A DNA stretch of 64,000 nt from Patescibacteria group bacterium (GTDB taxonomy: Bacteria > Patescibacteriota > Patescibacteriia > Patescibacteriales > JAQTRU01). Of the stretch, positions 59,352-59,581 are shown in pieces. How positions within the stretch are numbered: the stretch's first letter is position 1; each line of letters begins with the position of its first letter. The translations under genes were made by a program, and so were the position numbers. Under the pieces are notes generated by a model, which worked only from the letters and a program-made list of their open reading frames with translations, was not told where the DNA came from and made no database searches. The stretch spans positions 599 to 64,598 of the forward strand of contig JBAZPX010000003.1 of NCBI GenBank assembly GCA_041645555.1. The letters run 5' to 3'.

Positions 59352-59581
59352 TCGGGCTGCCGGGAGTCGAACCCGGGTTACCCCGCACGAAAGCATAGCT
59401 TTCTGCGGGGCAGGCATGCACCCTTCACCCTGTTAAATAATTTTGCCCCTGGTCGGGGTGCGGGGAATTGAACCCCGGCTACATCCACCCCATGGACGCG
59501 TACTACCGTTATACGACACCCCGCAAAGGGGCAAAAATTCAACAGGGCCATGCATGCGTAATACCGTTATACCACAGCCCG
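59352..59581 (-). pseudogene. Pro-like tRNA gene interrupted in the anticodon loop by a hairpin-armed insert carrying an intact tRNA-Pro, with a second hairpin insert in the variable region
   Basis: 5' half: CGGGCTG TG GTAT AACGGTA TTAC G CATGC ATGG. 3' half: GGT GCATG [CCTG CCCCGCAGAAAGCTATGCTTTCGTGCGGGG TAAC] CCGGG TTCGACT CCCGG CAGCCCG A. Acceptor, D, anticodon and T stems all pair. Confidence 0.5.
59450..59523 (-). tRNA. tRNA-Pro(GGG) with encoded CCA
   Basis: CGGGGTG TC GTAT AACGGTA GTAC G CGTCC ATGGGGT GGATG TAGC CGGGG TTCAATT CCCCG CACCCCG A CCA. Confidence 0.85.

Follow-up and report, generated by a model that had tools for sequence, protein, structure and literature searches.

Integrative elements such as phages and genomic islands enter tRNA genes and carry a replacement of the tRNA segment that they displace. 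They are kilobases long, encode an integrase and copy, as direct att repeats, just the stretch of the gene between the crossover and its 3' end; no complete tRNA is left between the old halves. The palindromic elements of Rickettsia reside inside genes, including RNA genes, and bring with them neither a cargo gene nor a replacement for the function of the gene that they enter. In archaea (Nanoarchaeum, Caldivirga and the Thermoproteales), split, tri-split and multi-intron tRNA genes are found, and archaeal tRNA introns are thought to transpose between tRNAs (see also PMC3978253).

Other systems involve short repeats, small nucleases or ribozymes. REP and REPIN sequences with their RAYT genes (PMC3116915, PMC3733652) are short GC-clamped multi-copy palindromes to which a one-sided non-palindromic tetranucleotide (GTAG or CGTC) gives orientation; short non-autonomous derivatives occur, as does a single-copy gene for an IS200-like HUH transposase between two repeat halves. 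The Ssn proteins are single-stranded-DNA nucleases with NTS/SRM hairpin repeats (Nat Commun 2025, PMC11893778). Their authors note that the repeat–gene–repeat layout resembles an insertion sequence, and the text of that paper makes no mention of tRNA. Free-standing GIY-YIG homing endonucleases such as phage T4 SegB are associated with tRNA genes and their turnover or amplification (PMC2988022, PMC13096335); SegB sits between such genes and not within one, and no nested tRNA results. Finally, tRNA-Asn and tRNA-Asp of Patescibacteria harbour group I introns at 35/36 that are self-splicing and mostly belong to subgroup IA (mSystems 2026, PMC13011429).

The locus described here lies in a stretch of 64,000 nucleotides from a Patescibacteria group bacterium (contig JBAZPX010000003.1, positions 599 to 64,598; the window). 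A 125-nt palindrome-ended cassette without att repeats carries a complete tRNA and occupies the anticodon loop of a second tRNA gene. As with the integrative elements, the insertion breaks a tRNA gene yet brings sequence that keeps a functional tRNA, and as in Rickettsia, palindromic selfish DNA would be tolerated within functional genes of a reduced genome. The likeness to the archaeal genes lies in tRNA halves joined by a GC-rich helix and in insertions found at 25/26 as well as within the anticodon loop, the variable region and the T loop, but those genes have BHB motifs, EndA and a ligase, whereas here the host is bacterial, no BHB could be drawn and the intervening sequence is itself a tRNA. 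The group I introns share the phylum, the unusual anticodon-loop position and a host gene that is missed by standard annotation tools; unlike them, our insert has no ribozyme core or Rfam group I signal and contains a tRNA. Compared with REPINs, the tag is T[GA]AA (or CAAG), the enclosed gene encodes a GIY-YIG protein of ∼96 amino acids, and copies sit in tRNA genes with a whole tRNA as cargo, which is undescribed for REPINs. Ssn systems likewise consist of a small single-domain GIY-YIG gene flanked by genome-amplified hairpin-forming repeats. They are, however, defined by cd10448 and have a full hairpin on each flank, whereas the window protein is known by PF01541 and its nearest solved relatives, the UPF0213 proteins, and its gene lies between the halves of one palindrome; on inspection, the SRM pattern HGTCWY..YYVSBRH..WNVSBRG..RNCYNB does not fit the repeats of the window. 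A layout of the SegB type is found at a tRNA-Val locus of the window, but the Pro cassette contains no nuclease gene. Our literature searches found no published description of tRNA-within-tRNA nests, which fits the statement in an earlier note on this DNA, made from the sequence alone, that the arrangement is undescribed in bacteria.

Architecture and folding of the nested locus

Sequence inspection confirmed a nested tRNA arrangement on the minus strand, at 59581–59352. The 5' part of the outer tRNA-Pro(GGG) (positions 1–35; 59548–59581, CGGGCTG...CATGC ATGG) contains the acceptor strand, the D arm, one strand of the anticodon stem and the loop bases ATGG, and is identical to positions 2257–2290 of the sister genome L002. 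The gene is split after anticodon-loop base 35, between 35 and 36, by the 125-nt cassette (59423–59547, minus strand), which has no counterpart in the otherwise identical L002 gene and consists of a 20-nt arm, TTTG, an intact tRNA-Pro(GGG) with its CCA, a 22-nt arm and TGAAG, in that order. The left arm CCCTGTTGAATTTTTGCCCC (59528–59547) pairs with the right arm GGGGCAAAATTATTTAACAGGG (59428–59449), while the TTTG spacer (59524–59527) between the left arm and the inner tRNA is unpaired in the minimum-energy fold. The inner tRNA-Pro(GGG) with encoded CCA occupies 59450–59523 and is followed, beyond the right arm, by the one-sided 3' tail TGAAG (59423–59427), which carries the tag T[GA]AA of a repeat family of the window and is missing from the empty site.

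The outer gene resumes with positions 36–43 (GGT GCATG; 59415–59422), identical to L002, and is then interrupted a second time at 43/44 by a 34-nt insertion (59381–59414), absent in L002, that consists of CCTG and the 30-nt hairpin CCCCGCAGAAAGC TAT GCTTTCGTGCGGGG. Positions 44–73 follow at 59352–59380 (TAAC, the T arm, the acceptor strand CAGCCCG and A73; minus strand, as for all of these features) and are identical to L002 except that one C is lost after A73. As a correction, the outer gene is followed by CA and not by CCA, which is present there in L002. We take the 34-nt hairpin to be a palindromic element that is empty and oppositely oriented. The 34-mer recurs with one difference at 43/44 of a different tRNA in L023, and similar hairpins are found at 43/44 in L006, L014 and L022.

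About 17 of the 74 positions are not shared by the inner and outer genes, and the changes in the stems are matched; a local duplication is ruled out on these grounds. The earlier note had likewise seen no simple duplication, and its description of the locus is borne out in the other respects as well: ARAGORN and Rfam both call the inner tRNA at 59523–59450, both pieces of the anticodon loop (ATGG and GGT) are present, the arms of about 20 nt that it described as mutually complementary pair in the minimum-energy fold, and the 30-nt hairpin that it placed in the variable region is contained in the 34-nt insertion.

The inner gene scores 52.7 bits against Rfam RF00005 (gathering score 29) and is called Pro(GGG) by ARAGORN, which identifies it as a tRNA. 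As it stands, the outer gene reaches only 15.7 bits (E = 2.6), for its 3' half, and does not qualify as a member of the family. ARAGORN, as the note had proposed, was also run in intron mode (-i); it reports the inner gene and never the outer one, and with the inner gene present a call of the outer gene required that the inserts be edited out. With both insertions removed in silico, the outer gene is called Pro(GGG) and is recognized as a tRNA. This 71-nt reconstruction matches the uninterrupted L002 gene letter for letter, where it scores 58.2 bits.

The minimum-energy fold of the 230-nt RNA is the nested structure, at −125.4 kcal/mol compared with −88.4 ± 4.9 kcal/mol for shuffled sequences (z = −7.6). 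The duplex formed by the flanks of the inner tRNA has −33.1 kcal/mol versus −11.4 kcal/mol for shuffles (z = −7.4), and the design of the nest is far beyond chance. For nested tRNAs the energies of the flank duplexes range from about −14 to −35 kcal/mol over the 28-nt flanks measured, and free-standing tRNAs in the same data set have −3 to −6 kcal/mol; the innermost L023 tRNA has −5.7 kcal/mol, its arms lying beyond the 28-nt flanks. In the window, arm pairing is stronger in the sense strand (−39.4 kcal/mol) than in the other strand (−29.8 kcal/mol), reflecting G-U versus A-C pairs. Over 12 nests this asymmetry shows no consistent trend, and selection at the RNA level and at the DNA level are therefore not separated.

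Upstream of the nest, a block TTGATA-17 nt-TAAGGT (59604–59632, minus strand) is conserved in an alignment of the window, L002 and L004, and a similar block is present in L023 and L025. Its sequence resembles a promoter, from which the entire nest would presumably be transcribed; a promoter and terminator scan gave no flag at this block or within the cassette. A DprA gene is located near the nest locus.

Empty site, related cassette and repeat family

At the same locus, L002 holds the exact uninterrupted outer tRNA with its CCA. The flanks of the two loci are nearly identical and the LCP proteins are 93% identical. Both the cassette and the 34-nt hairpin are precisely missing in L002, which is the empty site that the earlier note had suggested looking for in related genomes. 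The same cassette is found at the same locus in L023, but within a quite different, Pro(UGG)-like outer gene, again after base 35. Once its own inserts are stripped, this copy (cassette A) is 125 nt long with five differences (96% identical) and has kept the TGAAG tail; it is itself split by a third tRNA cassette, which gives three levels. Insertion polymorphism is thus evident from the empty site and from the presence of the cassette and of the 34-nt hairpin each in two host tRNAs. Elsewhere the inner tRNA occurs as an ordinary gene: a free-standing tRNA without arms in L025 (432–505) is 100% identical to it. We considered whether the arms could be a leader and a trailer native to the cargo tRNA and rejected this, as the flanks of the free-standing copy are unrelated.

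The arms belong to a palindromic repeat family (family A) of the form CCCCGTTAGAAAT...ATTTCTAACGGGG followed by T[GA]AA, with members across the window. The motif CCCCGTTAGAAAT has 18 matches in the window with at most two mismatches, against 3.25 ± 1.7 expected, mostly in inverted pairs; TGAA follows the right ends in the window, and some copies have TGAA or TAAA on both sides. The copy number is that of a palindromic mobile repeat (MITE or REP-like). The right arm of the nest together with its tail agrees with the family-A right ends at 19 of 22 positions, which none of 2000 shuffles reached, and the left arm resembles the left ends with p of about 0.002–0.03. The left arm itself is present once in the window at up to three mismatches.

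In the full-length member (7312–7614, minus strand) the two halves CCCCGTTAGAAAT...ATTTCTAACGGGG, each flanked by TGAA, enclose a GIY-YIG gene (7329–7619; 96 amino acids; Pfam PF01541, E = 2.8e-14), whose product has UPF0213 proteins as its nearest solved structures. A 119-nt derivative without the nuclease gene is located at 10362–10480 (minus strand). A further right end (58961–58993, minus strand) is embedded in the opening codons of the LCP gene (KISNGV), which lie 360 nt downstream from the nest, and the same right end precedes two different genes.

A second GIY-YIG ORF (34803–34528), intact and encoding 91 amino acids, has a relic 5' half of tRNA-Val on one side and a complete tRNA-Val on the other. 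The short stretches of sequence around the other nest loci yielded no GIY-YIG gene, and neither a transposase nor an integrase is encoded in or adjoining the cassette; the link of GIY-YIG proteins to nests is one of association only. In exact-protein look-ups, one of the two ORFs was found only in its own syntenic context and the other gave no record, and there is consequently no direct evidence of recent movement of these ORFs.

Recurrence across Patescibacteria

About 17 complete nests and five relics were identified in roughly 13 distinct related Patescibacteria sequences, a tally that is based on a scan for a two-D-arm pattern, which detects sense-oriented cargo only, and on look-ups at the orthologous locus. 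The pattern occurs at two loci among the GTDB species genomes and at 16 metagenome loci, of which 15 are nests or relics, some of these loci being duplicates or near-duplicates of one another. The nests are of the types Pro, Gly, Thr and Ala-in-Glu, and further ones met incidentally hold Ala(CGC) in Glu(UUC), Pro(UGG) in a Pro(UGG)-like gene and Thr(CGU) in a tRNA-like shell. One nest is situated at 37/38, the canonical position of tRNA introns. As a rule we tried that the inner tRNA always accepts the amino acid of the outer one; Ala(CGC) in Glu(UUC) breaks it. In L020, the Ala cargo sits within an intact-looking Glu(UUC) gene, from which it follows that the cargo is not always a replacement for the host function.

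The right arm is followed by TGAAG in L016, L020 and L023 as well, and by TAAAG or TGAAA in L014, L021 and L023. In L014, the nest arms, the 43/44 hairpin and a T-loop hairpin share CCCCG[AT]ACC termini and the one-sided tail, and L010 has two cargos flanked by one and the same imperfect hairpin in opposite orientations; the element thus carries an orientation mark. Beyond CCC.../...GGG and the tail, the arms of different nests have little in common, and several element families or a long divergence must therefore be assumed. The left flanks differ (ATGG, CTGG, CTTG and TTCA), so that no target rule can be defined, and at the nest no target-site duplication is seen, with at most one ambiguous G. 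A scan of IMG/VR gave no match for nests and a single contig for family-A hairpins, and there is no sign of phages carrying the cassettes.

The outer genes form a decay series. Many of them are still pristine, with 7/7 pairing of the acceptor stem in nearly all nests, and the two tRNAs of the L012 nest, inner and outer, are identical. Pristine outer genes fit a very recent insertion and equally fit selection or gene conversion. The anticodon stems of the outer genes are mismatched in L004 and L005, and the 3' sides are gone in L006, L008, L009 and L011. L006 retains three stacked 5' halves and no detectable tRNA.

Origin of the nest

Of the three readings that the earlier note left side by side, the first, an inverted-repeat element with a replacement tRNA, is the one we favour: a non-autonomous tagged-palindrome element with a tRNA as cargo probably disrupts the tRNA gene of the host and itself provides a functional copy. 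It draws on the empty site in L002, the same cassette in L023, the palindromic repeat family of the window and the recurrence in related genomes. The similarity of the arms also makes it likely that the cassette is a non-autonomous member of the host's own palindromic, one-side-tagged family A. The interior of the 125-nt copy would then be a tRNA-Pro(GGG) gene where the full-length copy has the gene for the small GIY-YIG nuclease. The insertion between 35 and 36 of the resident tRNA-Pro(GGG) is itself shown; cassette and TGAAG tail would have entered as one unit and inactivated the resident gene. Our best guess at the enzyme is a GIY-YIG nuclease that would act on single-stranded hairpin DNA, after which repair or recombination by the host would complete the insertion.

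No promoter is obvious within the cassette itself, and transcription of the inner tRNA would therefore start at the resident promoter and run through the outer 5' half. The arm helix of ∼21 bp would allow this tRNA to fold as an independent domain, and RNase P and 3' processing would release it to take over decoding, the inner tRNA presumably being the working gene. The outer halves, now dispensable, would gain palindromic insertions (at 43/44 here and at 55/56 elsewhere) or lose pairing. Recombination between the inner and outer 3' parts may remove the outer 3' side and leave stacked relic 5' halves, and a new cassette that invades the new working gene would generate nests two or three deep. 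The note had also considered a decaying pseudogene, which describes the fate of the outer halves (extra hairpins, lost CCA and, elsewhere, relic 5' halves) but does not hold as a one-off.

If this reading is correct, these ultra-small bacteria replace tRNA genes by a 'Russian doll' process, in which a tiny palindromic element brings in a foreign or paralogous tRNA, the resident is killed and the shell erodes. A selfish element would cancel its own cost by replacing the gene that it destroys, as is known for large integrative islands; such self-compensation has not been described for a hairpin element of ∼50 nt with one RNA gene. Standard tools would see the innermost tRNA only and miss shells and relics, which would affect tRNA counts and completeness estimates for Patescibacteria, and horizontally acquired tRNAs might pass as native. 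It would also provide concrete substrates for small GIY-YIG nucleases, namely hairpin DNA and tRNA-gene loops at 25/26, 35/36, 43/44 and 55/56, and would keep alive the question of whether bacteria process non-ribozyme insertions out of tRNAs.

A different role for the nuclease, in homing-type gene conversion instead of transposition, is conceivable, although we judge it unlikely: a GIY-YIG protein would cut the resident tRNA gene, and repair would proceed from a foreign allele with element and replacement tRNA, for example on DNA that this competent lineage has taken up. The nest would accordingly spread as an allele and the arms would be recognition hairpins of the nuclease rather than transposon ends, an idea to which we give similarly low weight. 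The tRNA-Val locus, with the ORF 34803–34528 between a relic half and a whole gene, has the layout expected of an endonuclease element with a replacement part, the window's cargo tRNA is the allele that resides in L025, a more distant relative, and a DprA gene is nearby. Ssn nucleases moreover cut single-stranded DNA beside the hairpin repeats that border their genes and modulate transformation (PMC11893778). However, the outer halves in the window show 100% identity to L002 as far as the very edge of the insert, and a conversion tract from a donor with another outer gene would have to stop within a few bases; the Pro cassettes have no nuclease gene inside; and for one cassette to be present in two unrelated host tRNAs, it must have entered a new site, which allele replacement does not provide.

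It is very doubtful that the cassette is instead cut from the outer precursor RNA by a bacterial cut-and-ligate pathway, or that the outer pieces stay together through the helix, giving two tRNAs per transcript. The insert does lie at 35/36 of the anticodon loop, as do the group I introns of Patescibacteria tRNA-Asn and tRNA-Asp (PMC13011429), and one nest lies at 37/38. The outer cloverleaves are mostly intact and are recognized after removal of the insert, and the precise lack of both insertions in L002 resembles the presence and absence of an intron. Compensatory changes are found in the arms (T-A to C-G and G-C / G-U / A-T in the CCCYGTTRAAT arms, CTAG to CTTG/CAAG in arms of the 25/26 type), and the cell could hardly tolerate an Ala cargo inside an intact Glu(UUC) host gene if this gene is essential and single-copy.

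Against this, no Rfam group I match is obtained across 59150–59750 at E up to 10, a threshold at which no family explains the insert and weak tmRNA-type matches reflect only a resemblance of T arm and acceptor. The 51 nt outside the inner tRNA are too small for a catalytic core, and the 5' exon ends in ...ATGG, that is in G and not U, although the insert does end in G. When sequence and minimum-energy folds were inspected, no bulge-helix-bulge could be drawn at the window's junctions, which are internal loops of 4 x 7-8 nt; no register places a pair of 3-nt bulges at a distance of 4 bp. Inspection of L014, L016 and the second nest of L020 likewise gave no acceptable register. Without ligation, a tRNA in two pieces with its break at 35/36 is unable to present its anticodon; the junction expected of a ligated product is ...GCATGCATGGGGTGCATG.... 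Additional insertions and mismatches are present in outer genes, which relic loci have lost entirely, and the same arms are ordinary genomic repeats at non-RNA sites. We know of no protein-dependent tRNA splicing in bacteria. The intron-like or split-tRNA reading of the earlier note has thus gained no positive support. There is a slim chance that the nest is a working two-in-one gene, in which an undescribed, protein-dependent removal of hairpin-ended insertions and rejoining of the exons would deliver both tRNAs from one transcript, and as slim a chance that, on this same reading, the palindromic elements are a new class of bacterial tRNA introns that spread at the DNA level.

The GTTRAAT/ATTYAAC sequences in the arms were also considered as an integron attC or dif-like site, which was rejected since the arms of other nests are unrelated and the orientation is unfit for attC. 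A tRNA-targeting island moved by an integrase was discarded because 125 nt leave no room for a protein-coding gene and no direct repeat of the outer 3' segment flanks the insert. That the nest is an accident of one genome (a decayed duplication or pseudogene, or an assembly artefact) has a negligible probability: the outer gene has lost its CCA, carries an extra hairpin and goes unrecognized by ARAGORN and Rfam as it stands, but the matched stem changes speak against a local duplication, the window sequence was assembled independently as L001, and the idea is refuted by the exact empty site and by the recurrence of nests of the same design in NCBI, JGI and ENA assemblies from many samples.

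Structure of the nest and its empty site

The nest lies at 59581–59352 on the minus strand, where the arrangement proposed in the earlier note (an outer gene, two arms, an inner tRNA-Pro(GGG) and a variable-region hairpin) can be read directly. The 5′ part of the outer gene, CGGGCTG TG GTAT AACGGTA TTAC G CATGC ATGG, is followed by the left arm CCCTGTTGAATTTTTGCCCC and TTTG, the 74 nt inner tRNA-Pro(GGG) with encoded CCA (59523–59450) and the right arm GGGGCAAAATTATTTAACAGGG with its tail TGAAG. The outer gene, or shell, resumes directly with GGT GCATG, a 34 nt variable-region insert (CCTG and a 30 nt hairpin, CCCCGCAGAAAGC TAT GCTTTCGTGCGGGG) and the 3′ part TAAC CCGGG TTCGACT CCCGG CAGCCCG A, then CA. 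Only the inner gene is called here by ARAGORN and Rfam (52.7 bits). For the whole 230 nt, the fold has the nested design and an energy of −125.4 kcal/mol (z = −7.6 versus dinucleotide shuffles): the outer acceptor stem is closed and, as anticipated, an arm helix of ∼21 bp extends the outer anticodon stem and carries the inner cloverleaf at its tip. ARAGORN in intron mode, a check suggested earlier, does not find the outer gene as it stands, but a tRNA-Pro(GGG) is called after in silico deletion of the 125 nt cassette (59547–59423) and the 34 nt insert.

Orthologous loci were fetched via the LCP gene, 350 nt downstream of the nest. The uninterrupted outer tRNA to be sought in related genomes was found in a sister genome (L002, GCA_028716725.1; LCP 93% identical to that of the window), where a tRNA-Pro(GGG) with upstream block and downstream sequence as in the window matches our 71 nt reconstruction of the outer gene exactly (L002 2257; 58.2 bits). 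The L002 gene ends in CCA and the window outer gene in CA. Both window insertions are therefore real and entered a normal gene, the alternative being that both were instead precisely lost in L002.

The tRNA locus upstream of LCP turns over fast across relatives. A more distant relative (L025; LCP 73% identical) has a free-standing tRNA without arms that is letter-for-letter the inner tRNA of the window. The orthologous locus of L004 holds a nest of another type and that of L006 only wreckage, and the tRNA is absent from those of L003, L026 and L027.

Recurrence of the cassette and of nests

The orthologous locus of L023 (LCP 87% identical) is nested at three levels. At level 1, a cassette follows loop base 35 of an outer gene resembling Pro(UGG) (CGGGGTA...TACCCCG). 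The tRNA cargo of this cassette, level 2, is interrupted in turn after base 35 by another cassette, the arms of which (CCCCGCTCCTTTTT / AAAAAGGAGCGGGG + TAAA) are unrelated. The tRNA-Pro(GGG) of this second cassette, level 3, is the sole tRNA detected there by ARAGORN and Rfam. Stripped of its own inserts, the first cassette has the length (125 nt) and the TGAAG tail of the window cassette and differs from it at five positions; ARAGORN recognizes both shells once they are reconstructed. The level-2 tRNA of L023 also holds at 43/44, with one difference, the 34 nt hairpin that in the window interrupts a different tRNA, the outer gene. The window cassette is thus a discrete unit that occurs in different host genes.

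A pattern of two Pro/Gly-type D arms 18–48 nt apart matched two loci among 185,579 GTDB species genomes and 16 in JGI metagenomes; among these matches L018 is an unrelated tandem repeat, L017 and L019 are duplicates of L005, and L007 and L012 are nearly the same. In type 1 nests the insert follows loop base 35, one arm starts with CCC, the other ends in GGG, and the tail is TGAAG, TAAAG, TGAAA or CAAG (Pro: window, L014, L016, L020, L021 and L022; Gly: L010 and L013). Type 2 inserts follow the D arm (25/26) and have arms CCGCCCGCCTAGCTTGC / ...CTAGGCAAGCGGGCGCGG (L004, L005, L007 and L012) or, in L015, other arms. The inner tRNA of L012 is identical to the outer one, and in the arm helix of L005 an A-T pair has become T-A, a compensatory change. 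Outside the pattern, Ala(CGC) is nested at 37/38 of an intact-looking Glu(UUC) gene in L020, Pro(UGG) in a Pro(UGG)-like shell in L010 and Thr(CGU) in a tRNA-like shell in L013.

The two acceptor strands of the outer gene pair at 7/7 positions in nearly every nest and are unlike the inner acceptor, so the outer pieces are true halves of one gene. Minimum-energy folds reproduce the nested design. Flank duplexes reach −14 to −35 kcal/mol for nested tRNAs versus −3 to −6 kcal/mol for free-standing tRNAs of the same loci, with the exception of the innermost L023 tRNA, the arms of which lie beyond the 28 nt flanks measured.

In relics, a 5′ half and left arm stand directly before a complete tRNA and the 3′ side is gone (L008, L009 and L011); the arms of L008 are almost identical to those of the window. 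L006 (2640–3040) is a relic in which a stack of three tRNA-Pro 5′ halves precedes a tRNA-Pro(GGG) with hairpins at 43/44 and 55/56. ARAGORN detected no tRNA in this segment and none exceeded the Rfam threshold; the genome may have lost tRNA-Pro(GGG) altogether.

Preferred insertion positions in tRNA genes are 25/26, 35/36 or 37/38, 43/44 and 55/56, each in several loci. T-loop insertions always fall between T55 and C56 (L010 2570–2640, L006 2960–3020 and the L014 outer gene), and the different genomes of L006 and L010 have a common motif there (...GCGGATCAGC...GCTGAC). L013 (930–1297 and 1820–2210) has a cluster of broken and nested tRNAs ∼500 nt downstream of an RNase P RNA gene (134 bits); in one tRNA of the cluster the entire anticodon loop is swapped for arms plus tRNA-Thr.

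Arms, palindromic repeats and GIY-YIG genes

The palindromic repeat family A of the window (CCCCGTTAGAAAT ... ATTTCTAACGGGG) has TGAA or TAAA on one side and gives 18 matches versus 3.25 expected, most in inverted pairs. It forms short hairpins (9765–9796, 35662–35694, 45953–45981 and 53914–53951), a 119 nt copy (10362–10480) and a 303 nt copy (7312–7614) whose interior is a 96-amino-acid GIY-YIG ORF, with UPF0213 proteins as its closest solved relatives. The right arm and tail of the nest agree with the family right ends, CAAAATT.T.TAAC.GGGTGAA, at 19/22 positions, a level reached by 0/2000 shuffles; the left arm aligns with p ∼0.002–0.03. Sister nests have arms CCCYGTTAAAT / ATTTAACRGGG + TGAAR (L008, L020 twice, L021 and L023). 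In L014 the termini CCCCG[AT]ACC are common to the nest arms and the hairpins at 43/44 and in the T loop (55/56), and these two small hairpins, when read on the opposite strand, have the same form of palindrome and 4 nt tail. L010 has two different cargos in opposite orientations flanked by the same imperfect hairpin. From these alignments and hairpins it follows that the arms are copies of an oriented ('tagged') palindromic repeat, and the cassette is a repeat of this kind whose loop holds a tRNA gene. The design is like that of REP/REPIN elements and of the hairpin repeats flanking small GIY-YIG Ssn nucleases (PMC11893778); the likeness is one of design, not a family assignment.

At a tRNA-Val locus on the minus strand, a relic 5′ half (34879–34807) with a 40 nt hairpin in its D loop (34860–34821) is followed by an intact 91-amino-acid GIY-YIG ORF (34803–34528), the final codons and stop of which lie inside a complete tRNA-Val(GAC) (34550–34476). 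RNase P cleavage of this tRNA would remove the stop codon from the nuclease mRNA. This second tRNA locus of the window agrees with the nest: its layout of old 5′ half, nuclease gene and complete tRNA links the GIY-YIG family to disruption of tRNA genes with replacement. A weak third GIY-YIG-like ORF segment lies at 23945–24193 on the plus strand (phmmer E = 1e-5 to 3e-4 versus the other copies).

Whichever gene is downstream takes its start codon and initial residues (MSEKNNKISNGV or a variant) from the GIY-YIG element's right end (...GAAAAAAATAACAAAATTTCTAACGGGGTGAA; window 7312–7345, 10362–10400 and 58961–59004; L023 2501–2540): an inositol-monophosphatase-like gene in the window (6536–7345) and LCP in L023 and L002. 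The N-terminus of the window LCP is a remnant of this right end. The family-A hairpin 35662–35694 (CCCCGTCAGAAAG...CTTTCTGACGGGG + TAAA) stands immediately upstream of a tRNA-Ile (35563–35637) whose UAU anticodon is uncommon among bacteria. A T-arm scan returned the perfect palindrome CCCC(T)TTTCGAAA(A)GGGG twice, ∼470 nt apart (4335–4351 and 4802–4818); these may be terminators or another repeat family. A single IMG/VR contig has a perfect family-A hairpin (L028, IMGVR_UViG_3300038429_000794, 3962–3990).

Proposed mechanism, alternatives and genomic setting

What inserts is a discrete unit: its empty site is exact, the cassette sits in two host genes and its arms belong to a repeat family. 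In our model the inner tRNA would be read from the conserved upstream block TTGATA-17-TAAGGT (59632–59604) and released by RNase P and 3′ processing, while the arm helix would keep the outer 5′ half, which is nearly identical, from interfering with the folding of the inner tRNA. Decoding is impossible with a loop broken at 35/36, so the outer gene is probably dead, and outer 3′ sides may be lost when the similar 3′ parts of the inner and outer genes recombine. Our best guess for the inserting enzyme is a GIY-YIG nuclease acting on hairpin DNA; neither a target-site duplication nor a fixed target sequence could be defined.

One rival is an intron-like arrangement in which both inner and outer tRNAs are produced. 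Group I introns of Patescibacteria sit at the same 35/36 position (PMC13011429), and the intact shells, the compensatory changes in the arms and the Ala-in-Glu nest of L020 also fit. However, Rfam gives no ribozyme signal, no bulge–helix–bulge motif could be drawn, and shells decay and vanish, in a series from pristine through extra hairpins or mismatched anticodon stems (L004 and L005) to 5′ relics and the dead locus L006. We also know of no bacterial pathway for such processing. Homing-type gene conversion, a close variant of our model, is disfavoured as an explanation on its own: the window shell equals L002 right to the edge of the insert, and the hosts of the cassette are unrelated. The recurrence of nests and independent assemblies exclude both a one-off decayed pseudogene, which the earlier note had considered, and an assembly artefact.

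Full-text literature searches returned nothing on nested tRNA genes in bacteria, in agreement with the earlier impression of novelty, and the Patescibacteria tRNA intron paper (PMC13011429) does not mention them. Palindromic repeats, small GIY-YIG nucleases and elements that disrupt a tRNA and supply its replacement are all known kinds of building block. We have not seen their combination described, a hairpin element of ∼50 nt with a tRNA as cargo that targets tRNA-gene loops and nests up to three deep.

The nest is surrounded by genes for LCP, Der/EngA, peptidyl-tRNA hydrolase and DprA, and by its closest named protein relatives the organism belongs to Patescibacteria, near Candidatus Falkowbacteria. 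Between the tRNA and LCP lies a conserved structured element of ∼250 nt (59095–59349, minus strand; L004 2515–2825, L023 1688–1940, L025 678–925 and L026 2108–2385) with the closing helix AAACTTCACCA / TGGCGAAGTTT. Across the five loci RNAalifold predicts 68 pairs, of which 19 show compensatory changes. The element has no Rfam match and may be an undescribed non-coding RNA or the leader of the LCP-der-pth operon. It is kept even in L026, where the tRNA is absent, and copies in relatives contain extra hairpin insertions. L004, alone among the relatives, has a PF05635 gene (23S rRNA intervening-sequence protein family) between LCP and der (4573–4932).
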